DNA of 64,000 bases from contig CAYXIK010000010.1 in the NCBI GenBank assembly GCA_964465315.1, positions 10,219 to 74,218 of the forward strand. Direction: 5' to 3'. Position 1 is the first letter of the stretch, and each line of letters begins with the position of its first letter. A program made the position numbers and the translations under genes. This document shows, piece after piece, positions 1 to 20,292 of the stretch. The notes below the pieces were generated by a model. That model was not told where the DNA came from and ran no database searches. It saw only the letters and a list, made by a program, of their open reading frames with translations. This DNA is from an uncultured Gemmatimonadaceae bacterium. GTDB taxonomy: Bacteria > Gemmatimonadota > Gemmatimonadetes > Gemmatimonadales > GWC2-71-9.

Positions 1-1012
1 CCGACCGCATCGCGACCGTCAGCGCGGCAAGGGTCCGCGGGTCGCGCAACCCCGGGGACCCGGCGCCAGCGAGGAGTTCCTCGACCGGCACCCAGTGTAG
101 TGTTTCTTGGGTCGACTGGAGCGCCCCGATCGCCCGCCGCACCTCCCACACCTCGAGCAAGGGTCGCGTGAGGCCAGCCGGGGCCGTGCCGAGGAAGCGC
201 ACCTGTCCGTCCGCGCTGCCGAACGACGCCCGTAAGACTTCCCGGCAACCCTCCTCGCCACCTCCCCTACGCATCGGGAGCGTGAATGAGCCGGACTCGG
301 CGAGCATCGCGACGGCCCCGACCTGGAGCGCGATCACCGCCACCTCGCGTCCGCCCCGCGTGACGTCGGCCAGGCCCTCTGCCTCGAGCTCGCGCAACAG
401 CTTCTCCGCGCGCTCCTGCTTCCCCACGAGCAGCGGGCGCAGGCCGTAGCGTTCTTGAAACGCCTGGGCGAGCCGGTCTAACCGCGGTCGGCCCGCGGCG
501 ACCGGGCGGAGTTTCAGCTCCTGAAACTGCTGCGCGAGGTGGTGGCTTCGCACCGTCACGACGTCGTAGATGATGTCGTGGCGCCCCCAGGAGAACCACG
601 CCGGCTTCGAGCGCCGCACGCGCCGCTCGGTCTCGAATTGGATCCGCGGGAGCAGTTGCCCGGGCTCGATCAACGCCCGCAGGCGGCGCGCCGGGTCAGA
701 CATGCCCGCAATCGCTTGGTCGCCTTCAAGCTCGGGGACTAGGGCCTCGAACCGCTGCGGAAGCATGAGGAGGGCGCCGTCTTCCCAGCGGCCGCCGGTC
801 CGGAGCGTGAGAATACGCCGATCGTCGACGCCGATACGAAACCGGCAGCTGGCGCCGCGCCGGCGCAAAGTCCAGTCGGCCGAATCGAAGTAGATGTCCC
901 GCTGGAAAAACGGCTCCACCGGGCCGGAGCGAAGGCCCAGGGGGAGGGGATCTGCCACCATGCGGTTGAGAAGGTCCAGCGCCGGAACGTCGGCCTTCCA
1001 CTCGGCCAACAT
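1..1012 (-). CDS. CYTH (triphosphate tunnel metalloenzyme) domain protein with C-terminal Nudix-like region; partial, 3' end runs off window
   Basis: Absent from the ORF track because there is no stop inside the window. The reverse frame is open from ATG 1012-1010 to nt 1, with strong GC3 bias. Translation MLAEWKADVPALDLL...FFQRDIYFDSADWTLRRRGASCRFRIG...ILTLRTGG...IQFETERRVRR...IIYDVVTV...ELKL follows the CYTH strand pattern. The start lies 2 nt after the stop of the upstream gene. Confidence 0.6.
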   Translation of the reverse strand, partial: MLAEWKADVPALDLLNRMVADPLPLGLRSGPVEPFFQRDIYFDSADWTLRRRGASCRFRIGVDDRRILTLRTGGRWEDGALLMLPQRFEALVPELEGDQAIAGMSDPARRLRALIEPGQLLPRIQFETERRVRRSKPAWFSWGRHDIIYDVVTVRSHHLAQQFQELKLRPVAAGRPRLDRLAQAFQERYGLRPLLVGKQERAEKLLRELEAEGLADVTRGGREVAVIALQVGAVAMLAESGSFTLPMRRGGGEEGCREVLRASFGSADGQVRFLGTAPAGLTRPLLEVWEVRRAIGALQSTQETLHWVPVEELLAGAGSPGLRDPRTLAALTVAMRS

Positions 1013-1014
1013 CT

Positions 1015-3594
1015 CTAAAACGCGAACCCCGTCCTGATGTACACGCGCGTCCCCTCGACGCTGTGCGCCGCGGCCACGGAAAACGTGTTGGCGCGACTCA
1101 GGAACGACATCCAGAGCCCGCCTCCCGCGGCAGCGTGCCAGCGATCCGAAGTCTGGCCCGAGAAGTACACGCGGCCGGCGTCCCCGAGCCCAAACACTCC
1201 GAGCTCACCTGGAAGCAACAAGAAAAACTTGGTGAGGGAGAGTCGCAGCTCGACGTTCCCGTATACGGCGGCATCGCCCACGAAGCGGTGTTCCACGAAC
1301 CCGCGCACAGTCGTGGCCCCGCCGATGTACGCCGCTTCCTCGAATGGCAAGGGAAGCGTGCTCCAGACCTTTTGCCCGGCGACCCGGACGGCGAGCGTCG
1401 GCCGCAGGGGAGCGTGGAGCATCAGGTACGAGGCCGCCTCGGCGTGGCCCTCGCCGAGCGCCGACGTCAAGCCCAGCGCCTTGGGATAGACACTGCCGCC
1501 GATGCCGAGGGAGATGCCGCGCGTCGCGGCTCGCGGTTGGTCCCGCGTGTCAATGTGAAGGGCCGCCGCGGCACCGACCTGAGCCAGGTCCTTGACGCCG
1601 TAGGGCCGCAGCGTGTTGATGAGGGTGCCCGCTTCGAGGTTAGTGTGAGCGAACTTGAACACCGGGCCGACCGACAGGTTCGTCGACCGCGAGAGGGAGA
1701 ACTGCAGGGCGGGCGCGACCAGATACTGCTGCTGCTTCACCTTGTAGAAATCACTCGAGCCCGTATCGACGGTCTCGTTGCCGAAGCCGTAGAATCGGAG
1801 GACATCGATTCCGGACGCCCGCACGTGGAGCGTCACAACGACGGGAGGTACCAGGCCTCGGAATTCACCGTTGAACTCAGCCCGGCCTGTCTGGGCCGCC
1901 GTCGCGTAGCCGGCGCGCACCCGCACATGGGAGTTGTATGGGAGCCGCCGGAAGTCGTACCCAGTCCCGTCGGCGCCCGCGCCTACGAACAGCCCCAAGT
2001 CCGGCGTATAGCCGGCCCAAGTGAGCGGCATCCAGCGCGAGCCCCAGTCGCGCGGGAGTCCCAGCGTCGAGGTGTCGACCGGTGGCTCCACGTAGCGCGC
2101 TCGGTCCACCGACGTGCCGTGTCCGGTGACGAAGCGGTCCATCCCGCCGTCGTCGTAGAACCGCGTTGTGCCCGCGCGCGCCGAATCCACCAGCTCGTCA
2201 TCCCCACCTCCACCGATCACGAGGACCACCGGCCCCGAACCGTCGGACCCGCGAACGACCGCCCGGTCGTCGCCGCCATGGAGGTACACCCGGATCTCTT
2301 CGGTGTCGTGGTGATCGAACGTGCGCTGGTAGTACGGCGCGCCTCCGGCACGGGGGGACAATCGCACGGAGATGCGTCCGCCGGCGAGGCGCTCGATTTC
2401 CGCGAGGTCCGGCTGGTCCGTTCCGTGGATCTCCACTACCTGGGCGCGGAGCGCGTAGTAGTCGTTCGCGATCTGGGGCAGGTGGTCCCGCCGGCGGCGC
2501 AAGGCGTACGCAAGGGCGGCGCCGTTCTTCCGGAAGTATTCGGGAGGGAGCCGGCGGATGGCCGCATCGATTACTGAGTCGGTCACCCGCGCCTTTATCG
2601 TGCGCGCCACCGAGTCCCACACGGGCTTCTCGAGATCCATAAGCAGCCGCCGGTCCGGCACCTCGCCCGCGTAGGTGAGACGCCAGATGCTCGGATAGTC
2701 GTCGCCGAAGCCAATGAGCTGGGGCCAATAGAAGCCCGTGAGCCATACCAGGAAGCCGTCGAGGCGTGCGAACGCCTGGTCGCGGTCACGCGGTATCGGC
2801 CGCCACCAGCGGATTCCCGCCGAGTCGAACCGCGCCCAGCGCCACTGATCCTGATGCCGGTCCCAGTCGCCGATCAACACGTCCATAAGGCGGGCGGCGA
2901 GGTACGCGCGGGAATCGACGCGGTTGCGCGAGTCGCGCTCCAAGTGTTCGAACAGTTTCTTCGTGCCCGCCAGGTCGGCCGCACCTGACCAGGCAACATC
3001 GTTATCCGGTCCCACAGTGGGACGCTCTTCGATCATGCCGAGCATACCCGCCTTGGCGCAGTCGAACCCCGCCAGACGGCGGTCATCCGGCAGCACGAAG
3101 ATTCGGGGCTCCGCATGCAGGATGCGGGCGGCGTCGAGGAGGGGCGCCACCACGAGGGGGGCGCCCGGGTGAGCGGAGCTGATCTGGTCCTGGATGAGAT
3201 CGCGTACGAACGTGGCCCGCAGCTCTGGAGGCAACGCAAGCGTCGGATCCTTGTCGACCGAGCGGAACACGTATTCCCGCCCGTTCGCCCCGAGAAGCCG
3301 GAGCGACTTAGTCTCGCGGCGGCCGCCGCACAGGCTCGGTGTAAGCCCGCCCGCATAGGTCGTCAGGTCGAGCACTTCGACCCGGAGCGGCGTAGTCCAG
3401 AGGTCGCGGTAGTGCGCGCCGAGCAGGAGGCGGTGAAGCCAACCGGCCTTGTAGTGCGACCCCGCCACTATGTCCACGTTCCGGGGCGAGTCCGCAGGCG
3501 CGCGGGCGGTCTGTGCGGCGAGGGGGCGACCCTGCGGGGAGCGGATCCACAGCGCAAAGAGGGCCGCGAGCCGCAGCCACGCACGGCGCCTCAT
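1015..3594 (-). CDS. Omp85/surface-antigen (D15) outer-membrane beta-barrel protein with large N-terminal kinase-like domain
   Basis: ORF 1015..3774, trimmed to ATG 3594. This gives the signal peptide MRRRAWLRLAALFALW and an ATGA overlap with the upstream stop at 3591. The C-terminus GGATTVRGF...GVFGLGDAGRVYF...YIRTGFAF is typical of D15 barrels. The N-domain contains LIGDWDRHQDQW (nt 2842-2871) and IPRDRDQAF. Confidence 0.75.
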   Translation of the reverse strand: MRRRAWLRLAALFALWIRSPQGRPLAAQTARAPADSPRNVDIVAGSHYKAGWLHRLLLGAHYRDLWTTPLRVEVLDLTTYAGGLTPSLCGGRRETKSLRLLGANGREYVFRSVDKDPTLALPPELRATFVRDLIQDQISSAHPGAPLVVAPLLDAARILHAEPRIFVLPDDRRLAGFDCAKAGMLGMIEERPTVGPDNDVAWSGAADLAGTKKLFEHLERDSRNRVDSRAYLAARLMDVLIGDWDRHQDQWRWARFDSAGIRWWRPIPRDRDQAFARLDGFLVWLTGFYWPQLIGFGDDYPSIWRLTYAGEVPDRRLLMDLEKPVWDSVARTIKARVTDSVIDAAIRRLPPEYFRKNGAALAYALRRRRDHLPQIANDYYALRAQVVEIHGTDQPDLAEIERLAGGRISVRLSPRAGGAPYYQRTFDHHDTEEIRVYLHGGDDRAVVRGSDGSGPVVLVIGGGGDDELVDSARAGTTRFYDDGGMDRFVTGHGTSVDRARYVEPPVDTSTLGLPRDWGSRWMPLTWAGYTPDLGLFVGAGADGTGYDFRRLPYNSHVRVRAGYATAAQTGRAEFNGEFRGLVPPVVVTLHVRASGIDVLRFYGFGNETVDTGSSDFYKVKQQQYLVAPALQFSLSRSTNLSVGPVFKFAHTNLEAGTLINTLRPYGVKDLAQVGAAAALHIDTRDQPRAATRGISLGIGGSVYPKALGLTSALGEGHAEAASYLMLHAPLRPTLAVRVAGQKVWSTLPLPFEEAAYIGGATTVRGFVEHRFVGDAAVYGNVELRLSLTKFFLLLPGELGVFGLGDAGRVYFSGQTSDRWHAAAGGGLWMSFLSRANTFSVAAAHSVEGTRVYIRTGFAF

Positions 3595-4661
3595 TCGCCC
3601 TTGCCCTTTTTCAGACCCCGAAGGGAGCGGTATTCCGCGGCATCGATCGGGGGCGTCCCCTGGCTTTTCAAGGCGTGGAGGAGCGACGCCGCCAGGATCC
3701 CTTCCTTGAGGCGCAGCAGGTATTCGAGCGTCGAGCGCCCAGTCCCCGCTGGCAGTATTTCCGCGAGCCTCCAACGGACCGTCTGCGTCTCCAGGAGTCC
3801 CTCGACGACCCGCTGCGCCGTCTCCGGCTCGGTCGTGTGCACCAGTAGGACACCGTTGAAGCGTTCCCCCTTCTTGTCGTCGGCGCGGGCCACGATGTAC
3901 GCCTGCAGGCGCGCTGCGCGGTCCGCTACCTCCTCGAGCTCACTCGGCGCGAGTGCGGCCAGCAGCTGCGGATCGCCGACGGCCAGTTGCGCGGAGGGAC
4001 GACGACGCGGGCCCAGCAACCCCTCGGCGGGTGGCAGCGCCGGCAACAGGACACCCTGGTCGGCGTAGATGTTGCCGACGTTGAGCTTCCATAACGCGAG
4101 CACCGTCAGGTTGAACACCAGCGACATCACGGCCGCGACCACTGGAACGTAGACACCGGCCGCGAGGCCTACGCCGAGAGCGAGGTAGATGTAGACGACG
4201 TCTTTTGTGTCCTTGAGGGTGTTGCGAAAGCGGATCGCCGCCACTATGCCGCCCAGCGCGAAGGCCAAGGCGAGACTGTTCTGGACGAGGATGAGCGTGC
4301 CCGCCACCGTCATCGGCAACACGATCACGGTCTGCACGACCGACTGGTCGTAGCCGCGTTGCTGCTTCGTGGTCATGTATACCCACGCCGTAGGCAGCAT
4401 CAAGGCCAGAGCCCCGATCATCGAAAACATCGTGATGACGGCGAGCGCCGTGGCGCCCAGGCTTCCGGGCCCGGCACCGCTCGCCGCCGTCTCGAGCGCC
4501 TCCTTCTTACTGACGACGCCGTGCACGGGCGAGAGTTCTTGGAAGCGGGCGAACAGATCGCGTATTTGCGGGAACAACGTGACCAGCACGAGCGTGATCA
4601 GGGCGAGGAGCACGTAGTACGCAACAAGGCGCACGAACGGAGATTTCCAGATCCGCTCCAT
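3591..4661 (-). CDS. DUF4956-family integral membrane protein with ~150 aa cytoplasmic C-terminal extension
   Basis: ORF 3591..4865, trimmed to ATG 4661 (MERIWKSPFVRLVAYYVLLALITLVLV). It has multiple TM helices. The segment ALGGIVAAIRFRNTLKDTKDVVYIYLALGVGLAAG resembles the DUF4956 core (RYRT..I..KEM.YLF). Confidence 0.65.
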   Translation of the reverse strand: MERIWKSPFVRLVAYYVLLALITLVLVTLFPQIRDLFARFQELSPVHGVVSKKEALETAASGAGPGSLGATALAVITMFSMIGALALMLPTAWVYMTTKQQRGYDQSVVQTVIVLPMTVAGTLILVQNSLALAFALGGIVAAIRFRNTLKDTKDVVYIYLALGVGLAAGVYVPVVAAVMSLVFNLTVLALWKLNVGNIYADQGVLLPALPPAEGLLGPRRRPSAQLAVGDPQLLAALAPSELEEVADRAARLQAYIVARADDKKGERFNGVLLVHTTEPETAQRVVEGLLETQTVRWRLAEILPAGTGRSTLEYLLRLKEGILAASLLHALKSQGTPPIDAAEYRSLRGLKKGKGE

Positions 4662-4748
4662 TTTGGTAATAGAAAGGCGCCATCCCCAATTGGCTAGAGT
4701 GGTTTGGCTCGCTTGGCGCGGGAGAAGGGGCAGGCTAAGTTGGCCCTG

Positions 4749-7406
4749 ATGCTCGACGTGCTCGACAAGCTTCGTGAAAGCCTGGCACCCCGCTATGACG
4801 TCGAACGGGAAATCGGCACCGGCGGCATGGCGCGGGTCTACCTCGCCGTAGAGCAGCACCCACATCGCCGTGTGGCGATCAAGGTGCTGGACCCCGAAGT
4901 CTCCACCCGCTTGCTCCGCGAGCGGTTCATTCGCGAGGTGGACCTCTCATCGAACCTCAGTCATCCCCACATCGTACCGATCTTTTCAGCGGGGGAAGCG
5001 GGTGGCCTGTTCTACTACGTCATGCCGTACGTCGAGGGCGAATCGCTGCGGCACCGCCTGTTGCGACAGCGCAGGCTGCCCCTGGACGATGCGCTCTACA
5101 TCGCCGGCGACGTCGCCGACGCGCTCGGCTTCGCCCACGGCCAGGGGATCATCCACCGCGACATCAAACCCGAGAACATCCTGCTGTCGGGCACTCACGC
5201 GATCGTCGCCGATTTCGGCATTGCCCGCGCCATCAGCGCCGCGGGGAGCCTGACGCTTACCCAGGCCGGCCAGACGGTCGGGTCACCAGGGTACATGAGT
5301 CCGGAACAGGCCATGGCCACCGGCGATCTCGACGCGCGCACGGACATCTACAGCCTGGGCTGTGTGGTGTTCGAGATGCTGGCGGGGGAGCCTCCGGCCG
5401 CGAGCATGACCGAGCGCCGGATCCACAACTGGACCGCCCTCGAAACCAGCGCGGCGATGCGGCGCGCCGAGGCCGGAACAGTGCGGGCGGTGAAACACGC
5501 CATTTCCCGGGCATTGGCGCCGCTGCCCGATGATCGATTCCCCACGGTCGCCGAGTTTGCAACCGCCTTAGGAGGAACGGCGCATCGGATCAGTGTGCCG
5601 AGCCGCGGCATCCTCGCCGGTCGCCGGGGGCGGCGAATCGCGTTTGGCGCAGGGATCGCGGTCGCCCTCCTCGGCACGGGCACGGCAGTCCAGGTGCTCC
5701 GCAATCACGGCCCGCGGCTCAACGAGCGACGGGTCGTGGTCGCCGTGATCGAAAACCATACCGGGGACCCCACGCTCGACAACATCGGGCACATGGCGGC
5801 GGATTGGGTCACGCAGGGGCTCGCCCAAACGGGCCTCGTGGAGGTCGTGCCGTCGGTGTCGGTGTTGAGCTCGTCACGCGCTCCGGCGGGGCACGGCGCC
5901 GGACACCTCGATGCCGTGGGGATCCGGAGTCTGGGGCGCGAGACGGGTGCCGGCACCGTGGTGTCGGGCGCCTACTATCATCAGGCGGACAGCATCCGGT
6001 TCCAAGTCCAGATCTCCGCGTCAGGCGACGGCACGGTGTTGCGCGCGCTCGACCCAGTGGCGGCACCGATCTCACAGCCGCTCACCGCCGTGGAAGCCTT
6101 ACGCCAGCGAGTGATGGCCGCACTCGCGACGCTCTTCGACCAGCGCCTGAGCTTCTGGGCAAAGACGGCAGGTCAGCCTCCCAGCTTCGCCGCGTACCAG
6201 GAGTTCATCCAAGGGCTCGACCGGATGGTGCAGTTCGACTCACGTGGCGCCATCGGTCACTTCCGGCGCGCCGCGTTGCAGGACACGACCTTCAAGCTGC
6301 CCTTGATCTTCGCCGCGCACGAGCACATGGACTTGGGCGAGTTCGCCACCGCCGACTCGATCGCGCACGCGGTCGACCGCTCTCCGGGTCCCCTGTCCCC
6401 GCTCGACCGGCACTACCTGACGTGGGTGCTCGCGGAGACGGGGGGCGACCGGCAACGATCGCTCGAGACGGCGCGTGAGATGGTGGCGATCGCGCCAAAT
6501 TCCGAAACGCTGTGGCTGGTGGCGCAGTGTGCCCTCGCGCTCAATCGTCCTCGGGAGATGGCGGATGCGCTGACGACGCTCGGGCCCGACCGCGGCCTGT
6601 TCCGGGGCTGGTCCGTCTATTGGTTCTACTTGTCCTTCGCCCATCACCTGATGGGCGATTACCACCGCGAGCTGAAAGTAGCGCTCGAAGGGAGGCGGCG
6701 TCATCCGGACGAACTGACGGTACTCGCGGCGGAAGTGAGGGCGCTCGCCGCGCTGGGCCGGACCGCCGACATCAACGAGCGCCTGACCGAGGCGCCGAGC
6801 CTCCCACCACAGCCGGGCTGGTCTCCCGCCGACATCGCCCTGCTCGCCGCGTTCGAGCTGGCAGCCCACGATCACCGCGCGGACGCCCCGGGCGCGAGTC
6901 GCTGGGCTGTGCATTGGCTGGAAGGACGGCATGCCGCCGAAGGGCGATCAATCGCAAACCGTTTCCGTCTCGCCATCGCGCACTACCTCAGCGGGGAGCT
7001 CGAGACGACGCGAGGTCTGCTGGAGGGACTCGTTCAGGAGAAGGCAGTCGAGGCACGCGATTCCGCCAACCTGCGATGGTTCTCCGCCATCACGGGTGAT
7101 CTGCCCGATCATCTGACTTTCCTCGGCTTTCTCGGAGTGGTGGAGGCGCGCGAGGGGAAGCGCGAGGACGCGCTACGCATCGACCGGGAGCTTCAGGCCA
7201 TGAGCCCACGGTATCGGTACGGCCGGCACACGATGTGGCGCGCCCGGATCCACGCCGTTATCGGCAAGCCTGACTCGGCCGTGGCGCTAGTGGAGGAGGC
7301 GTTCGCTCAGGGGTATCCGCGGGGCGGGGTCATGCACCTCTACCCCTCGCTCGCGTCGCTGCGTGACGACCCAGCCTATCAGGAGCTGCTCAAGCCCAAG
7401 GAGTAA
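4749..7406 (+). CDS. Ser/Thr protein kinase with one TM helix and large TPR-like extracytoplasmic domain
   Basis: ORF 4704..7406. Hanks kinase motifs are present: GTGGMARVYLA, AIKVL, HRDIKPENILL, DFGIA, GSPGYMSPEQ. The TM helix is IAFGAGIAVALLGTGTAVQVL. ATG 4749 is preferred over TTG 4704, but the start is uncertain. Confidence 0.85.
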   Translation: MLDVLDKLRESLAPRYDVEREIGTGGMARVYLAVEQHPHRRVAIKVLDPEVSTRLLRERFIREVDLSSNLSHPHIVPIFSAGEAGGLFYYVMPYVEGESLRHRLLRQRRLPLDDALYIAGDVADALGFAHGQGIIHRDIKPENILLSGTHAIVADFGIARAISAAGSLTLTQAGQTVGSPGYMSPEQAMATGDLDARTDIYSLGCVVFEMLAGEPPAASMTERRIHNWTALETSAAMRRAEAGTVRAVKHAISRALAPLPDDRFPTVAEFATALGGTAHRISVPSRGILAGRRGRRIAFGAGIAVALLGTGTAVQVLRNHGPRLNERRVVVAVIENHTGDPTLDNIGHMAADWVTQGLAQTGLVEVVPSVSVLSSSRAPAGHGAGHLDAVGIRSLGRETGAGTVVSGAYYHQADSIRFQVQISASGDGTVLRALDPVAAPISQPLTAVEALRQRVMAALATLFDQRLSFWAKTAGQPPSFAAYQEFIQGLDRMVQFDSRGAIGHFRRAALQDTTFKLPLIFAAHEHMDLGEFATADSIAHAVDRSPGPLSPLDRHYLTWVLAETGGDRQRSLETAREMVAIAPNSETLWLVAQCALALNRPREMADALTTLGPDRGLFRGWSVYWFYLSFAHHLMGDYHRELKVALEGRRRHPDELTVLAAEVRALAALGRTADINERLTEAPSLPPQPGWSPADIALLAAFELAAHDHRADAPGASRWAVHWLEGRHAAEGRSIANRFRLAIAHYLSGELETTRGLLEGLVQEKAVEARDSANLRWFSAITGDLPDHLTFLGFLGVVEAREGKREDALRIDRELQAMSPRYRYGRHTMWRARIHAVIGKPDSAVALVEEAFAQGYPRGGVMHLYPSLASLRDDPAYQELLKPKE

Positions 7407-7459
7407 TCGTAGACAAGGATACGGACGTCCTCGTCGTCGGTGCAGGCCCCACCGGGCTG

Positions 7460-8989
7460 ATGCTCGCGAATCAGCTCGCCCGACGAGGCGTGCGGATGCA
7501 AATCATCGATCGACACGCCGGCCCGGCGCGCGAGTCGAGGGCGCTCGGCGTGCAGGCCCGCACCCTGGAGATTTACTCACACTTGGGGATCGCCGACCAG
7601 GCCGTCGCCCTCGGGAAAAAAGCCGACGGCGCCGTCCTGTGGGCAGAGGGCCGGCGGGCCGCGCGCGTTCCGCTGGGGGACATCGGGCGGGACGTCAGCC
7701 CGTATCCCTATCTGCTGGTCCTGGGGCAAGACGACAACGAGCGGTTGCTGGGAGGCGCGCTGCGCGCCCGCGGCCTCGGCGTACAGTGGAACACCGAGCT
7801 GGTAGGCCTCGCGCAGGACACCGATCACGTGACGGCGACGCTCAAGAACTCGGACGGTACGAAGAGCGAGGTGAGGGTCCCCTGGCTCGCCGGCTGCGAC
7901 GGGGCGCGCAGCACGGTGCGCGAGCTCAACGGGATCGCGTTCGAGGGCGCGCCCTACCAACACGTGTTCTTCGTCGCCGATGTGCAGATGACGGGATCGA
8001 TGGCACCCGACGTGCTCAACGTGTATCTGTGGCGCACGGGATTTCACTTGCTCTTCCCGATGCGGGGGACCGATCATTGGCGGATCGTCGGCATCCTGCC
8101 CCCTCACCTGCGGGGGCGAGACGACCTCACGTTCGAGGAAACCCTTCCCACGCTGCGCCGCGAAGTGGGTGATGAGCTTTCATTCCAGGCGTGCAACTGG
8201 TACTCCGCCTACCGCATCTATCACCGCCGCGCGGCCCGGTTTCACGACCGCCGCTGTTTTCTGCTCGGGGACGCGGCGCACATCCACAGTCCGGTAGGAG
8301 GGCAGGGCATGAACACCGGCCTGCAGGATGCGTACAATCTTGGCTGGAAGCTCGCCCTCGTCGTGTCGGGACGCGCGGGGGTGGACCTGCTCCACTCCTA
8401 TGAGGACGAGCGCCTCCCCGTCGCCAACCACCTCCTGAAACGCACCGACCGGTTGTTTTCGCTCGTGGTCTCCGACAGCTGGCTGGCGGGGTTCGTCCGT
8501 ACGCGGGTTTGGCCGAAGATCATGGGGTTCGCCCTGCGCACCGCCCCGGCGCAACGAATCCTCTTTCGCACCATATCTCAGACTGGCATTCGGTATCGGA
8601 CCAGTCCCCTCTCGGAGGCACTGGCGGGTCTGCCTGAAGCCGGCCCGCGCCCCGGTGATCGTTTCCCGTGGCTGCGACTCACGTTTCGGCGGAATGGTGC
8701 CTCCGAGGACCTGTTCGCAAAACTCGACGATACGCGATTCAATCTGATCGTGATCGGGCAAAATGCCCCGCCGGGTGGAATCCCGGAGCTCGGCGACTTG
8801 TTGCGCGTCCACGAGGTTCCGAGCGATCCTGTCAACGACCGGGAGCTCGCCCGTGCGAGGATCCCCCGCGTCTCTTTTTACCTGCTGCGTCCCGACGGCC
8901 ATGTCGGGCTGGCGGGGACACAGTTCGAAGCCGGGAGTGCGACCCGCTATCTCTCCGAGCGCGTTCGCCTTGGAGGTAGCCGCGGGTAA
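7460..8989 (+). CDS. FAD-dependent aromatic-ring monooxygenase (PheA/TfdB-like); true start probably upstream of 7460
   Basis: ORF 7460..8989. Motifs seen include GCDGARSTVR and LLGDAAHIHSPVGGQGMNTGLQDAYNLGWKL (FAD-binding GD motif). The Rossmann motif DVLVVGAGPTGL is encoded in frame at 7424-7459, before the first ATG/GTG/TTG (see findings). Confidence 0.85.
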   Translation: MLANQLARRGVRMQIIDRHAGPARESRALGVQARTLEIYSHLGIADQAVALGKKADGAVLWAEGRRAARVPLGDIGRDVSPYPYLLVLGQDDNERLLGGALRARGLGVQWNTELVGLAQDTDHVTATLKNSDGTKSEVRVPWLAGCDGARSTVRELNGIAFEGAPYQHVFFVADVQMTGSMAPDVLNVYLWRTGFHLLFPMRGTDHWRIVGILPPHLRGRDDLTFEETLPTLRREVGDELSFQACNWYSAYRIYHRRAARFHDRRCFLLGDAAHIHSPVGGQGMNTGLQDAYNLGWKLALVVSGRAGVDLLHSYEDERLPVANHLLKRTDRLFSLVVSDSWLAGFVRTRVWPKIMGFALRTAPAQRILFRTISQTGIRYRTSPLSEALAGLPEAGPRPGDRFPWLRLTFRRNGASEDLFAKLDDTRFNLIVIGQNAPPGGIPELGDLLRVHEVPSDPVNDRELARARIPRVSFYLLRPDGHVGLAGTQFEAGSATRYLSERVRLGGSRG

Positions 8990-16601: not shown

Positions 16602-18002
16602 TCAGACCGCGAGAGGATGCAGGGGCGCGGCGTGGCGCGCTCCCGCCAGATCGTCTTCCGGAATGTCGGTGGGGTAATCGCCCGAGAAGCAGGCGTGACA
16701 GAACTCGGCCGGGTCGCCCTGCGCAGCCCGCAGCATGCCATCGAGGGACAGATACCCCAGAGTGTCGACCCCGAGGTGCTCACGTATGTGCTCGACGTCG
16801 CTGCTCGACGCGATCAGCTCCTGCTTGCTCGGCGTGTCGATGCCGTAGTAGCACGGGCCGGTGATCGGGGGCGAGGCCACGCGGAAATGCACTTCCTTGG
16901 CGCCCGCCTGGCGGATCAGCTGCACCAGTGCACGACTGGTCGTGCCCCGCACGATAGAATCGTCCACCACGACGACCTTCTTGCCCTGTAACACTTCCCG
17001 GACTGGATTGAACTTGATCTTGACCTTCGCCATGCGGCCGGCTTGGGCGGGATGAATGAACGTCCTGCCGACATAGTGGTTGCGGATCAGCGCATGCTCG
17101 AGCTTGATGCCTGACTGCTCGGAGAAGCCGAGCGCCATGGCGTTGGACGAGTCGGGCACCGAGAACACGCAGTCGGCTCCGGGCGTCGGATGCTCGCGCG
17201 CGAGCTCTCGCCCGAGCGCCCGGCGCACGCGGTCCACTGACCGGTGAAACACCGTACTGTCGGGACGCGAGAAGTAGACGAGCTCGAAGACGCAGCGACG
17301 GTGCGGTCGCACGCCAAGGCGGGGGAGCTGATCCACGTCCTCGCCGTGTATGCGGACGAAGTCCCCCGGCTCGAGCTCCCGGACCAGCGTGGCGCCGGTG
17401 ATGTCGAGCGCACAGGTCTCGGACGCGACCACCCAACCGCGCCCGAGGCGACCCAGGGCCAATGGTCGAAAGCCCCGGGGGTCGACGATCGCGTACAGGG
17501 TGCGCCCGACGGTGATGAGCAGCGAGTACGCGCCCTCCACCCGCTCGAGCGCGTCCAAAAGCTGATCCTCCGGCTCCCGGGCCTCGGAGCGGGCGATGAG
17601 ATGCACGAGCACCTCGCTGTCCGACGAGCTCTGGAATAACGAGCCCTTCGCCACGAGGTCCGCCCGGAGCTGCACGGCGTTTGTGAGGTTGCCGTTGTGC
17701 GCGAGCGCCAGCGGCCCTTCGCGGTACCGGGCGAGCATCGGCTGGGCATTGGCCAGGACGGAAGACCCGGCGGTGGAATACCGAGTGTGACCGATGGCGA
17801 CATCCCCCGCCAGCTCACCGAGCACGCGCTCACTGAAGATGTCGGAGACGAGCCCCATCCCGCGGTGCGACCGGGCCACGCCTTCGGCGTCCACGGCCGC
17901 GATCCCAGCGGACTCCTGCCCCCGATGCTGCAGGCTGTAGAGACCGAGGTACGCGACGCGGGCCGCGTCGGGCACGCCGGTGACACCGATGATGCCGCAC
18001 AT
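16602..18002 (-). CDS. purF: Amidophosphoribosyltransferase
   Basis: ORF 16602..18122, trimmed to MCGIIGV (ATG 18002, N-terminal nucleophile Cys). A PRPP motif VVVVDDSIVRGTT is present. Confidence 0.93.
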   Translation of the reverse strand: MCGIIGVTGVPDAARVAYLGLYSLQHRGQESAGIAAVDAEGVARSHRGMGLVSDIFSERVLGELAGDVAIGHTRYSTAGSSVLANAQPMLARYREGPLALAHNGNLTNAVQLRADLVAKGSLFQSSSDSEVLVHLIARSEAREPEDQLLDALERVEGAYSLLITVGRTLYAIVDPRGFRPLALGRLGRGWVVASETCALDITGATLVRELEPGDFVRIHGEDVDQLPRLGVRPHRRCVFELVYFSRPDSTVFHRSVDRVRRALGRELAREHPTPGADCVFSVPDSSNAMALGFSEQSGIKLEHALIRNHYVGRTFIHPAQAGRMAKVKIKFNPVREVLQGKKVVVVDDSIVRGTTSRALVQLIRQAGAKEVHFRVASPPITGPCYYGIDTPSKQELIASSSDVEHIREHLGVDTLGYLSLDGMLRAAQGDPAEFCHACFSGDYPTDIPEDDLAGARHAAPLHPLAV

Positions 18003-18009
18003 CCGTTGC

Positions 18010-20292
18010 TCAGTCTCCCATGCGCCGGGGAAGTGCCGTGAAATATACCTGACGGAGCTGGTCGACAGGGTGCTCGATCGTCGTGTCGCGTAGGCGCACG
18101 CGGACGGCGGCGCCGCGCTCACCGACGCTCCCGACCCGCCGTGCGGGCACCCCGAGCTCCTGCGCGAGCGCAGCGACCACCACCGCGCGCTCGGGCGAGC
18201 ACGTCACCACCGCGCGGCCATGTGATTCGCTGAACAACAGCTCGGCGGCCGCAAGGCCCAAGCCGTAGGCCGTGAGATCCACTTCGAGACCGAACCCCGT
18301 CTCGTCGTACGGTCCACCCATCGCTATCTCGGCGAGAGCGACCCCGAGCCCGCCCTGCGAGCAATCGTGGGCGGAGCGGACCAGCCCGCGCTCCGCGGCT
18401 GCGATGAGGTAGTCCACTATTCGACGCTCGACGCCGAGGTCCACCCGGGGCGGCGCGCCACCCACGAAGCCGTACACCGCCTCCCATAGCTGCGACGCTC
18501 CGAGCTCGGCGCGCGTCTCGCCGAGCACGAACACGGCATCTCCCTTCACGCGCGCGTGACTCGGCACCGCGCGGTCGACCCGTGGCAGCAGCCCGATCAT
18601 GCCCACGACCGGTGTGGGGTCCACCGCGCCTGCTGGGCTTTCGTTGTAAAAGGAGACGTTGCCGCCGGTGACCGGCGTGCCGAGGGCGCGGCACGCCTCC
18701 GCGATGCCGCGGCAAGCCTCCCGGAACTGGTAGAACACCTCGGGGCGTTCCGGGCTCCCGAAGTTCAAGCAGTCGGTGACGCCGAGAGGGCGGGCGCCGG
18801 TGCACGCAATGTTGCGTGCGGCCTCCGCCACGGCGGCCTTGCCGCCCTCGTACGGGTCGAGCAGGACGTAGCGACTGTTGCAATCCACGGTCACCGCGAC
18901 GCCGAAGTCCTCGTCCCGCACCCGCAGCACGCCGGCGTCGCCCCCGGGACCGATGACCGTGCCCGCCTGAACGGTGGAGTCGTACTGCTCGTAGACCCAG
19001 CGCTTGGATGCGATCGGGGGATAGTCGAGGAGCGTGAGTAGTACGTCAGCCGGAGCGGGGAGTGGGGAAGGGGGAGAGGGACGCTGCGACCGCAGGCTCG
19101 CGAGTGCTGCGTCCTCATGCGCGTCCGGCTGATATGCCGGGCAATCGTCGATCAGGCGCTGGCCCGGGATTTCGACGACCAACTGGTCCCCCCACTTCGC
19201 CCGGTAGACGCCGTCGTTCGTTACGCGCCCGATGAGCGTCGCATCGAGCTCCCACTTCGCGGCAATGACTTTGACCTCGGCGACGCGTTCGGGCTTCGCC
19301 ACGACGAGCATCCGCTCCTGCGACTCCGACAACAGGATCTCGTAGGGGGTCATCCCCGGCTCTCGCGTGGGCACGAGCGACAGATCGATCTCCACGCCCA
19401 CGCCACCCCGCGCGGCCATCTCGGCGGACGAAGAGGTGAGTCCGGCGGCCCCCATGTCCTGGATGGCCACGATGTGACCCGACGCGATCATTGCGAGGCT
19501 GGCCTCGAGAAGCAGCTTCTCGGTGAACGGGTCGCCCACCTGCACCTGCGGGCGACGCTGCTCGCTTTCGTGCGTCAGCTCCTCCGAAGCGAAGGACGCG
19601 CCATGGATCCCGTCGCGACCGGTTCGCGAGCCGACCACGAGGAGCACGTTCCCCACACCGCGCGCGGCTGCCCTGATCAGATCTCTTTCTTTGAGCAGTC
19701 CGACGCACATCGCGTTGACGAGGGGGTTGCCGCCGTGGCTCGGCCCAAAGTCCACCTCGCCTCCGAGGGTCGGGACGCCGACACAGTTCCCGTAATCGCC
19801 CACACCTTTCACCACGCCCGCGAAGAGATAGCGGTTACGGGCTTGATCGAGCCCGCCGAATCGGAGGCTGTTGAGGAGCGCCACGGGACGCGCCCCCATG
19901 GTGAAAACGTCGCGCAGGATGCCGCCGACGCCCGTCGCCGCACCCTGATAGGGCTCGACCGCCGACGGGTGATTGTGGGACTCGATCTTGAACGCAACCG
20001 CCCAGCCCTCCGGAAGGCGCAGGACGCCGGCGTTCTCTCCCGGTCCCTGGACCACCTGAGGGCCCGTGGTGGGGAACGTCTTCAGCACGGGCCGCGAGTG
20101 CTTGTAGGAGCAGTGCTCGCTCCACAAGGCCGAGAACACCCCGAGCTCCGCGAAGGTCGGCGTGCGGCCCAGTAGCGCGATGATTCGCTGATATTCAGCG
20201 TCGTTGAGATTGTGCTCGTGGACCACCTGCGGCGTGATCGGGGGGTCGCCTGGGAACGGTGTAGGGCCGGGAAGGGAGGCGACCCGGCTCAC
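18010..20292 (-). CDS. purL: Phosphoribosylformylglycinamidine synthase subunit PurL
   Basis: ORF 18010..20487. GTG 20292 is chosen (GTGA overlap with the upstream stop 20289-20291). The sequence [19 protein letters not shown]...[12 protein letters not shown] is typical of PurL. Confidence 0.92.

Follow-up and report, generated by a model that had tools for sequence, protein, structure and literature searches.

The 64,000-nucleotide stretch of DNA analyzed here (the window), from an uncultured Gemmatimonadaceae bacterium, holds the front part of a conserved Gemmatimonadota operon that, judging from a near-identical orthologue of its truncated third gene, links an unusual polyphosphate kinase to an inner-membrane DUF4956 protein and to an outer-membrane barrel carrying a predicted kinase-like domain. 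This suggests an undescribed way for bacteria to handle polyphosphate (polyP) in the cell envelope, and no published description of such a system was found. An earlier sequence-only reading had described three tightly packed minus-strand genes, encoding a DUF4956 protein, a secreted protein joining a kinase-like domain to an Omp85 barrel, and a CYTH (triphosphate tunnel) protein with a Nudix-like tail, and this observation was confirmed, both in its coordinates and in all four domain assignments. The main correction is that the third gene is cut by the window edge.

Gene organization and domain content

Gene A (3591..4661, minus strand) specifies a DUF4956 protein of 356 aa, gene B (1015..3594, minus strand) a protein of 859 aa, and gene C (<1..1012, minus strand) is visible for 337 codons without a stop inside the window. 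The start of B overlaps the stop of A (ATGA at 3591-3594), and a 2-nt gap (AG, 1013-1014) lies between the TAG of B and the ATG of C, which indicates co-transcription and probably translational coupling. A short intergenic region (4662..4703), presumed to be a shared promoter region, separates gene A from a divergent gene (4704..7406, plus strand), although a sigma-70 consensus scan found nothing there, and the promoter and terminator consensus scan gave counts no different from those of shuffled sequence. The divergent gene encodes a 900-aa Hanks-type Ser/Thr kinase (PF00069, 155.5 bits) with one TM segment (residues 314-332) and a large extracytoplasmic TPR-like domain. It is conserved next to the operon, adjoining DUF4956 in most relatives, and is the probable regulator.

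The protein specified by gene A matched PF16316 (DUF4956) at 44.0 bits (cut-off 30.6) over residues 85-191 (4089..4409, minus strand). Hydropathy analysis placed about 6 TM segments in residues 12-195, followed by a lineage-specific linker of about 70 aa and a C-terminal soluble alpha/beta domain that is shared with Gram-positive DUF4956 proteins and predicted to be cytoplasmic from the positive-inside pattern. The Pfam core includes the conserved motif AxAF(A/S)L...RFRNxLKDTKD at a predicted cytoplasmic loop, and alignment with DUF4956 proteins of Nonomuraea and Paenibacillus showed that F145-R146 and D154 are invariant and N147 nearly so, with conservation extending to the C-terminal domain. 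When searched alone, the C-terminal domain returned only DUF4956 fragments and no new architecture.

Protein B has a Sec-type signal peptide by inspection. Its N-terminal domain (residues about 39-384; 2443..3480, minus strand) had no sequence match in Pfam, NCBIfam or PDB, but its AlphaFold2 model (pLDDT 77, pTM 0.79) returned almost exclusively protein-kinase-like (PKL) structures among the top 50 Foldseek hits, including CtkA (3akk, E 7e-6, the best value), Fam20C, mTOR, VPS34, Rio2, COQ8A, APH-type kinases and, at rank 18, CotH (5jd9, E 7.5e-4). The assignment rests on a predicted model, and the TM-scores are modest, at 0.3 on query length and up to 0.52 on target length (CtkA). The segment GDWDRHQDQW (residues 242-251; 2842..2871, minus strand) is catalytic-loop-like and resembles the DRHxxN loop of PI3K/HipA-type kinases, with Gln in place of Asn. 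Among 45 members at 38-57% identity, D243 and R246 are invariant, while D245, H247 and Q250 are at least 90% conserved. A second segment, PRDRDQAF (residues 268-275; 2770..2793, minus strand), in which D270 and D272 are invariant, is a candidate metal-binding (DFG-equivalent) segment, inferred only from the order of secondary structure elements in the model, without a residue-level superposition; both segments follow helix E in the expected order, the second after the beta-hairpin that follows the catalytic loop.

The PKL domain is followed by a predicted beta-rich spacer (residues about 386-499; 2098..2439, minus strand) with repeated GGDD-type turns, then by a low-confidence, disordered linker and an Omp85-superfamily barrel (residues about 550-859; 1018..1947, minus strand). 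The barrel matched PF01103 at 31.6 bits (cut-off 24; residues 557-818) and PF03865 at 28.6 bits, while NF047779 scored 64 bits, below its cut-off. The loop-6 motif TVRGF lies at residues 762-766 (1297-1311). A profile of B searched against PDB found only BamA-type barrels, including BamA and a POTRA-domain protein with RGF aligned, and no kinase, whereas PDB sequence searches with A, B and C gave nothing significant. No POTRA domain was detected in B, either by Pfam or in the predicted secondary structure between kinase fold and barrel, and the BamA equivalog model scored only 14.6 bits against a cut-off of 297.

The visible part of protein C matched PF01928 (CYTH) at 26.6 bits (cut-off 23.2), and its AlphaFold2 model (pLDDT 82) resembled triphosphate-tunnel (TTM) proteins over residues 1-215 (368..1012, minus strand), the top Foldseek hit being YgiF with tripolyphosphate (5a60, E 3e-8), followed by AtTTM3. 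The tunnel arginines are conserved (R130, R133 and R155 are invariant, as is E165), but the N-terminal ExExK catalytic motif is not; strand 1 reads A-E-W-K-A here and PRWDIP or SLRFEVP in more distant homologues, and the Pfam match starts only at profile position 24. Residues 220-337 (2..355, minus strand) showed a predicted Nudix fold, matching YmfB, MutT1, NudC and others (TM 0.5-0.6 on the length of the single-domain targets, rmsd 3-5 Å over about 130 columns). The Nudix box (GX5EX7REUXEEXGU) is degenerate, as the helix reads REVLRASFG (218-244), with the catalytic Glu-Glu pair replaced by Arg-Ala and only R..(L/M)R conserved in relatives.

An orthologue at genome locus L005 (8393-11584), 96% identical to C over the shared 337 aa, is 1,064 aa long and continues into a complete polyphosphate kinase 1 (PPK1). 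It carries the PP_kinase_N, middle, C1 and C2 domains, passes TIGR03705 at 724.6 bits (cut-off 465.85), and its C-terminal 680 aa align end to end with solved PPK1 chains at 372 bits, the THAK and LEH motifs, which hold the two presumed catalytic His residues, being identical. The link to polyP is therefore direct, although for this particular genome the PPK1 part is inferred from the orthologue.

Conservation of the gene cluster

The gene order in Gemmatimonadota runs Ser/Thr kinase (divergent), DUF4956, often a lipoprotein metallophosphoesterase, PKL-Omp85, and CYTH-PPK1, making it a module of four to five genes rather than a triad, and it persists down to roughly 45-50% identity of B across 80 genome loci. 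Of 35 loci with at least 3.5 kb on both flanks, 31 have DUF4956, PPK1 or the metallophosphoesterase within 8 kb of B. Among the 20 of these in which B is at least 49% identical, 18 keep DUF4956 and 18 keep CYTH+PPK1, while more distant loci keep subsets in other arrangements; in the 15 with B below 49% identity, the most frequent partner is the secreted metallophosphoesterase (12 of 15). B and PPK1 stay linked in three different arrangements, B followed by CYTH-PPK1, PPK1 followed by B (loci L068 and L080), and divergent PPK1 and B (L081, L084 and L086), and in these five loci DUF4956 is absent. A second, plain PPK1 occurs nearby in at least one relative (L013). The metallophosphoesterase, which weakly resembles purple acid phosphatases, is present in most relatives but absent from the closest ones and from the whole 64-kb window, and so is dispensable. 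In one database protein (P0279) it is fused to B as a Metallophos-PKL-Omp85 protein. A phytase-like/SdiA-regulated propeller lies between DUF4956 and the metallophosphoesterase in L082 and L057. Homologues of B without these partners (L040, L058, L073 and L074) sit in unrelated contexts and look like stand-alone paralogues. The N-terminal domain of B is found in about 3,150 representative clusters at 50% identity.

Pfam searches of open reading frames from unannotated plasmid-collection sequences recovered VTC-DUF4956-CotH in Nonomuraea and VTC-DUF4956 in Paenibacillus, an association also reported in the literature (bioRxiv 10.1101/768473; PMC2879425). DUF4956 thus sits directly next to two unrelated polyP polymerases, VTC in these organisms and CYTH-PPK1 in L051, L063 and L082, which looks like non-orthologous displacement around a constant membrane partner.

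Possible functions

The sequence-only reading proposed that CYTH replaces VTC and a DRH-motif domain replaces CotH in a variant of the VTC-DUF4956-CotH triad, forming an envelope-directed phosphate, polyP or nucleotide system. This interpretation was only partly supported. Its premise is real, the three genes are co-localized in related genomes, and the idea of an uncharacterized envelope phosphate/polyP system is strengthened, but the proposed replacement is wrong in detail because PPK1, as seen in the orthologue, takes the place of the VTC polymerase. The window locus has neither VTC nor CotH: no PF09359 hit was found in A, B, C or the full-length orthologue of C, nor any PF08757 hit, and profile-profile alignment (hhalign) gave probabilities of only 0.14 for the CYTH region against a verified bacterial VTC protein and 0.18 for B against a verified CotH, so these domains are not claimed to be divergent VTC or CotH.

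The favored explanation, which remains tentative, is an envelope-directed polyP system. What the analysis establishes is the full PPK1 in the third gene (by way of the orthologue) behind a TTM domain that keeps its arginine-rich tunnel and a Nudix-fold domain that has lost its catalytic box, the polytopic nature of DUF4956, the signal peptide, predicted kinase fold, conserved catalytic-type residues and barrel of B, and the persistence of the gene cluster across the phylum, often with a lipoprotein metallophosphoesterase. The activities, binding and transport are inferred. In this view, PPK1 would make polyP at the inner membrane; its TTM and pseudo-Nudix extension would bind the chain or a nucleotide signal and dock PPK1 to DUF4956; DUF4956 would pass polyP across the membrane, as the yeast VTC membrane domain does and as the bacterial VTC-DUF4956 pairs suggest; and in the periplasm or outer membrane the PKL-Omp85 protein would bind the polymer, use it as a phosphoryl donor or pass it on, while the metallophosphoesterase trims it and the Ser/Thr kinase senses an envelope or periplasmic cue and controls the system. 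The conserved gene order, the pairing of DUF4956 with two polymerases, the extracytoplasmic phosphoesterases that travel with B, and the yeast precedent (PMC7381174) all favor this. However, the literature library searched gave no experimental datum on any DUF4956 protein, PPK1 normally makes cytoplasmic granules without any translocase, and the periplasm has no ATP, so that a true kinase activity of B would need an unproven donor. A bolder and unlikely extension, though one not excluded, is that DUF4956 is a polyP translocase able to work with either VTC-type polymerases or PPK1, that the exported polymer feeds an outer-membrane-anchored kinase-fold enzyme using polyP rather than ATP as phosphoryl donor, and that the lipoprotein metallophosphatase is the periplasmic polyphosphatase, which together would form a bacterial counterpart of the yeast VTC/acidocalcisome system and a route for surface or periplasmic polyP.

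The main rival, considered rather unlikely, is phosphate scavenging plus storage, in which PKL-Omp85 and the periplasmic phosphoesterases capture and hydrolyze external organic or condensed phosphates, the freed phosphate is imported and stored by PPK1 as cytoplasmic polyP, DUF4956 is a transporter or regulator, and the Ser/Thr kinase senses phosphate supply. The direction of flow is not fixed by the data, and the metallophosphoesterase and phytase-like propeller fit this reading equally well. The frequency of the metallophosphoesterase in distant loci, its weak resemblance to purple acid phosphatases, the position of the propeller in L082 and L057, and the origin of the sequences in soil Gemmatimonadota, where phosphate is limiting, favor it. 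It does not explain why DUF4956 pairs with cytoplasmic polyP polymerases in Gram-positive bacteria, which have no outer membrane, nor why PPK1 carries a dedicated TTM and Nudix-like extension only in this context; moreover, the window and its closest relatives have no phosphoesterase gene in the cluster, and no Pst/PhoU-type genes were seen in the neighborhoods examined. Less likely still is a purely regulatory or anchoring module, in which DUF4956 tethers the specialized PPK1 and relays signals from the Ser/Thr kinase, polyP stays cytoplasmic, and the kinase-like domain of B, a co-regulated envelope protein, is a non-catalytic binding module. The predicted cytoplasmic C-terminus of DUF4956, the conserved kinase gene, the Gln replacement in B, and the degenerate Nudix domain, which recalls Nudix-type effector-binding domains such as that of NrtR (PMC2330246), are consistent with this, but B and PPK1 remain adjacent where DUF4956 is absent, the near invariance of the putative catalytic residues of B would be unusual for a pure scaffold, and secreted phosphoesterases co-travel with B and can be fused to it.

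A fortuitous neighborhood, with B being just another BamA/TamA-type assembly factor among unrelated housekeeping genes, is very unlikely. NCBI names homologues 'BamA/TamA family outer membrane protein' and the barrel matches BamA profiles, but the lack of POTRA domains, the low equivalog score, the overlapping or nearly abutting genes, the fusion protein, and the gene order conserved in several arrangements all disfavor it. An anti-phage defense function was also considered and rejected, as PADLOC hit only the generic Ser/Thr kinase domain (PD-T4-6 models) and none of the other proteins. The Riemerella OMP76 paper, a possible lead to an Omp85-metallophosphatase link, proved not to be pertinent.

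These findings bear on the unresolved question of how polyP reaches the outside of the bacterial cytoplasmic membrane, surface and periplasmic polyP having been reported, for example, in Neisseria. The occurrence of DUF4956, a widespread membrane family, beside two unrelated polyP polymerases in Gram-positive bacteria and Gemmatimonadota makes it a concrete candidate for the missing membrane step, and gives a testable gene set. Two of the architectures, a PPK1 with a TTM and pseudo-Nudix N-terminal extension and a kinase-fold domain fused to an Omp85 barrel, could not be found described, and if the latter domain is active it raises the question of what drives phosphotransfer in the envelope. 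Gemmatimonas aurantiaca was reportedly isolated as a polyphosphate accumulator, so a cultivable relative may exist for experiments.

Comparison with known systems

The yeast VTC complex with the vacuolar polyphosphatases Ppn1/Ppn2 would share the same logic, with a polymerase on the cytosolic face, a membrane part that translocates the growing chain, and a metallophosphatase-superfamily polyphosphatase (lumenal Ppn2) on the far side (PMC7381174). Here, however, the polymerase is PPK1, the compartment would be the periplasm or outer membrane of a diderm bacterium, translocation is inferred, and no sequence homology was detected between DUF4956 and any PDB chain. The secreted atypical kinases CtkA (Helicobacter pylori), Fam20C and CotH act outside the cytoplasm and are among the best structural matches to the N-domain of B, CtkA being closest, followed by Fam20C and PI3K-like kinases, and the DRH-type loop of B resembles that of HipA/PI3K-like kinases. 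No sequence-level relationship was detected, Gln replaces Asn in the loop, and the domain of B is tethered to an outer-membrane barrel. The type Vd autotransporter PlpD (patatin-POTRA-barrel) is a possible analogue that likewise joins an N-terminal enzyme-like domain to a 16-strand Omp85-type barrel with the loop-6 RGF motif, but B has no detectable POTRA domain, and a predicted kinase fold in place of patatin.

In YgiF-type CYTH-CHAD tripolyphosphatases, as here, a TTM domain is fused to a polyP-related module, CHAD domains binding polyP and occurring in operons with polyP enzymes (bioRxiv 10.1101/567040). The partner in the orthologue is PPK1 rather than CHAD, and since ExExK is not conserved, a binding role is more likely than a hydrolytic one. 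Relative to canonical PPK1 (E. coli PPK, PDB 1xdo), the orthologue carries a 380-aa N-terminal extension and sits in an operon with envelope proteins.

The closest counterpart is the VTC-DUF4956-CotH cluster of Bacillota, Actinomycetota and Bifidobacteria, found as 'poly-phosphate polymerase, DUF4956, CotH' accessory genes next to pel operons, and in C. perfringens NELoc-2. Both have tightly packed same-strand genes that place a DUF4956 membrane protein, with the same core motif and C-terminal domain, beside a polyP polymerase and a secreted (here predicted) kinase-fold protein, and for both any function is inferred. They differ in that the polymerase here is PPK1 (PLD-type) rather than a VTC/TTM polymerase, the TTM domain is only an N-terminal appendage, the kinase-fold protein is not CotH by sequence and is fused to an Omp85 barrel, and a Ser/Thr kinase and often a metallophosphoesterase are added.

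Gene organization and domain content

Three minus-strand genes occupy positions 1-4661 of the window. Gene A lies at 3591..4661 (-) and encodes 356 aa, with its ATG at 4661; gene B lies at 1015..3594 (-) and encodes 859 aa; and gene C starts at 1012 (-) and runs off the window start, with 337 codons and no stop. The ATG of B (3594-3592) overlaps the TGA of A (3593-3591), giving ATGA at 3591-3594, while the TAG of B (1017-1015) is followed by AG (1014-1013) and then by the ATG of C. The sequence-only reading had described this close packing, with a 4-nt overlap and a 2-nt gap, and had named the genes as DUF4956, a kinase-like/Omp85 fusion, and CYTH with a Nudix-like tail; that observation was confirmed. 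Pfam supported its three family names above the curated cut-offs, with DUF4956 in gene A at 44.0 bits (cut-off 30.6, residues 85-191), Omp85 in gene B at 31.6 bits (cut-off 24, residues 557-818), and CYTH in gene C at 26.6 bits (cut-off 23.2, residues 26-144).

A gene for a 900-aa Hanks-type Ser/Thr kinase (4704..7406, plus strand) diverges from gene A, and its product has one TM segment and a TPR-like C-terminal part. The kinase matched many PADLOC PD-T4-6 and mad6 kinase models (up to 265 bits), but this reflects the generic Hanks kinase domain, and none of the neighbouring proteins matched a defence family. Downstream of the kinase gene is an ORF of 509 aa (7460-8989, plus strand); a shorter ORF (323 aa) in a similar position in the relative L001 (one of the homologous loci compared here) carries PF01494 (FAD_binding_3).

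Gene C and its longer orthologues

Gene C is cut by the window edge. Contigs carrying close homologues of B showed the same gene order, and in these the downstream gene is 1,025-1,081 aa. The orthologue in one of them (locus L005, 8393-11584) is 96% identical to the 337 visible residues of gene C, and carries PP_kinase_N, PP_kinase, PP_kinase_C_1 and PP_kinase_C after residue 380. It passed the NCBIfam equivalog for polyphosphate kinase 1 (PPK1), TIGR03705, at 724.6 bits against a cut-off of 465.85, and aligned end to end with solved PPK1 chains at 372 bits, with identical THAK and LEH segments, which hold the two catalytic histidines.

The AlphaFold2 model of the 337 visible residues (pLDDT 82) splits into two domains. 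Residues 1-215 are predicted to form a triphosphate-tunnel (TTM) domain, for which the best structural match was Escherichia coli YgiF with tripolyphosphate (5a60, E 3e-8), followed by AtTTM3. Residues 220-337 are predicted to form a Nudix-fold domain, matching YmfB, MutT1 and NudC with TM-scores of 0.5-0.6 on the length of the single-domain targets and an rmsd of 3-5 Å. The description of gene C as CYTH with a Nudix-like tail was structurally right, but judging from the orthologue this region is only the N-terminal extension of a polyphosphate kinase. The Nudix box is degenerate, REVLRASFG having lost the Glu-Glu pair, and the ExExK strand of the TTM domain is not conserved among relatives. 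In contrast, the tunnel arginines are conserved, with R130, R133 and R155 invariant, and R51/52 and R109/110/112 nearly so. It is inferred that both domains bind rather than hydrolyse.

In three relatives (L001 13792-15288, L005 12164-13708 and L006 10806-12365) a GGDEF (diguanylate cyclase) gene converges on the end of CYTH-PPK1, a position that falls beyond the start of the window, and in L005 and L006 a small ORF of 183-206 aa without a Pfam hit follows PPK1. In the locus L013, a second PPK1 gene (17361-19397, minus strand), 45% identical to the PPK1 part of the fusion and with no CYTH-region match beside it, lies 2 kb downstream of the cluster, suggesting that the CYTH-PPK1 is a specialised paralogue.

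Gene B, a predicted kinase-fold domain joined to an Omp85 barrel

The N-terminal 520 residues of B gave no match in Pfam, NCBIfam or PDB sequence searches. A model built on 65 sequences (pLDDT 77, pTM 0.79) returned Foldseek hits that were almost exclusively protein-kinase-like (PKL) folds, including Helicobacter pylori CtkA (E 7e-6, TM 0.52 on target length), Fam20C, mTOR and VPS34, CotH (5jd9, E 7.5e-4, rank 18), and Rio2, COQ8A and APH-type kinases. The TM-scores are modest, and the assignment rests on the consistency of the hits and on motif order. In 45 members at 38-57% identity, R111, K115, D136, D243, R246, D270 and D272 (full-length numbering) are invariant, and D245, H247 and Q250 are at least 90% conserved. 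They form GDWDRHxDQW after the helix that corresponds to helix E, and PRDRDQAF after the following hairpin, which is the order of a kinase catalytic loop and metal-binding segment, with Gln where PI3K/HipA-type kinases have Asn, although this mapping is inferred. A beta-rich segment and a disordered linker follow, without a POTRA domain, and the barrel is of the Omp85 type with the loop-6 motif TVRGF.

The N-domain family is large, with 3,154 representative clusters at 50% identity. Most of the best 150 of these are about 820-900 aa, with shorter sequences that are probably fragments, so the fusion is the rule. Public names for homologues are 'BamA/TamA family outer membrane protein' or 'hypothetical'.

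Gene A, a DUF4956 membrane protein

Hydropathy analysis of A gave about six TM segments. The strongly basic loop RFRNTLKDTKD is predicted to be cytoplasmic, which would place the C-terminal 160 residues in the cytoplasm. When A was aligned with DUF4956 proteins from the verified VTC clusters of Nonomuraea and Paenibacillus, the core was found to be shared, with F145-R146 and D154 invariant, N147 nearly invariant, and a G.A.G helix also invariant. The last roughly 80 residues are shared as well, while Gemmatimonadota have a linker insertion of about 70 aa. Searched separately, the C-terminal domain was found only with DUF4956.

Conservation of the neighbourhood

A genome scan with a profile of the B N-domain returned 80 loci, nearly all from Gemmatimonadales or Longimicrobiales, with two labelled Bacteroidota. 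Genes A, B and C (the last split into the CYTH region and PPK1), the metallophosphoesterase found beside B in many relatives, and the Ser/Thr kinase were mapped onto all loci by tblastn. Of the 35 loci with at least 3.5 kb on both flanks, 31 have DUF4956, PPK1 or the metallophosphoesterase within 8 kb, and 20 have both DUF4956 and PPK1. Among the 20 of these loci where B is at least 49% identical, 18 have DUF4956 and 18 have CYTH+PPK1, while among the 15 below 49% the metallophosphoesterase is the commonest partner (12), followed by DUF4956 (8).

Arrangements vary. The commonest is DUF4956-(Metallophos)-B-CYTH-PPK1, while in the loci L051, L063 and L082 the order is Metallophos-B-DUF4956-CYTH-PPK1-kinase; in L068 and L080, PPK1 is directly upstream of B, and in L081, L084 and L086, PPK1 is divergent from B, with the metallophosphoesterase downstream. 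Some Gemmatimonadota carry two tandem copies of the PKL-Omp85 gene, 50-66% identical to B, between DUF4956 and CYTH-PPK1 (L022 3599-6103 and 9965-12451; L034 7404-9929 and 9989-12475; L035; L041). A few B homologues are stand-alone in unrelated contexts. One genome (MAG SMAG_U13200) holds two B homologues, one in the full cluster (L008) and the other, 55% identical (L040), in an unrelated context between a cNMP-binding oxidoreductase gene and a thioredoxin-like gene, with a MASE1 histidine kinase further upstream.

The metallophosphoesterase (PF00149) has a lipoprotein signal, LQGC or LQAC, and is absent from this window and from its three closest relatives. In distant versions of the cluster (L082 7860-8720; L057 7171-8778), a gene for a phytase-like / SdiA-regulated beta-propeller (PF13449, PF06977) lies between DUF4956 and the metallophosphoesterase. 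A single predicted protein of 1,335 aa (P0279, from the representative sequences) joins Metallophos (69-266), the kinase-fold domain (474-1019) and the Omp85 barrel (1084-1297), and may be a true fusion or a read-through of two genes that normally overlap by 13 nt.

DUF4956 beside other polymerases

The sequence-only reading had started from the premise that DUF4956 is found in many bacteria next to a VTC domain and CotH. A tblastn search of a plasmid collection with A hit two large replicons, and Pfam searches of their ORFs gave VTC-DUF4956-CotH in Nonomuraea gerenzanensis and VTC-DUF4956-Cthe_2159 in Paenibacillus cellulosilyticus. In the latter (locus L088), the gene after VTC-DUF4956 (6679-8574) specifies a Cthe_2159 beta-helix carbohydrate-binding protein rather than CotH. 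The same set has been reported in two papers: 'CotH, a poly-phosphate polymerase, DUF4956 and DUF4832' lie next to pel operons (bioRxiv 10.1101/768473), and VTC, a 222-226-aa membrane protein and CotH lie together in Clostridium perfringens NELoc-2 (PMC2879425). The former paper also notes a cyclase/phosphodiesterase gene in the bifidobacterial CotH-polymerase-DUF4956 cluster. In Bacteroides thetaiotaomicron, a DUF4956 gene and a DUF2490 gene (BT3498-BT3499) are listed together as one down-regulated unit in an iron-stimulon table (PMC10434189), and if DUF2490 is an outer-membrane protein, Bacteroides may also pair DUF4956 with an outer-membrane component. None of four papers that mention DUF4956 tests its function.

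Possible function

The comparative data establish a phylum-wide module, apparently co-transcribed, in which a specialised PPK1 (as seen in the orthologues of gene C) is joined to one inner-membrane protein and one outer-membrane protein, with extracytoplasmic phosphoesterases and a transmembrane Ser/Thr kinase as frequent companions. What this module does is inferred, and this applies to the direction of polyphosphate (polyP) flow, to the location of the N-terminal domain of B, and to any catalytic activity of that domain. The strongest single argument is that DUF4956 sits beside two unrelated polyP polymerases in different phyla, which points to a role tied to the polymer itself. In yeast, VTC couples synthesis to translocation and the lumenal metallophosphatase Ppn2 degrades the chain (PMC7381174), and by analogy, export of polyP across the inner membrane, with use or processing by B, is considered the most likely reading, although it is held only tentatively.

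Phosphate scavenging plus storage is the main alternative, somewhat less likely than export but not remote. A purely regulatory or anchoring role for DUF4956 is doubtful, and a chance neighbourhood is very unlikely. The proposal that the locus is a variant of the VTC-DUF4956-CotH set, forming an envelope-directed phosphate, polyphosphate or nucleotide system, was partly supported.

Relationship to known systems

No description of a PKL-Omp85 fusion, of a CYTH-Nudix-PPK1 fusion, or of their operon was found in the literature searched. The closest known arrangement is the VTC-DUF4956-CotH neighbourhood, itself uncharacterised, of which the window locus has one of the three defining features, DUF4956, but differs in the other two, as it has no VTC domain and no CotH.
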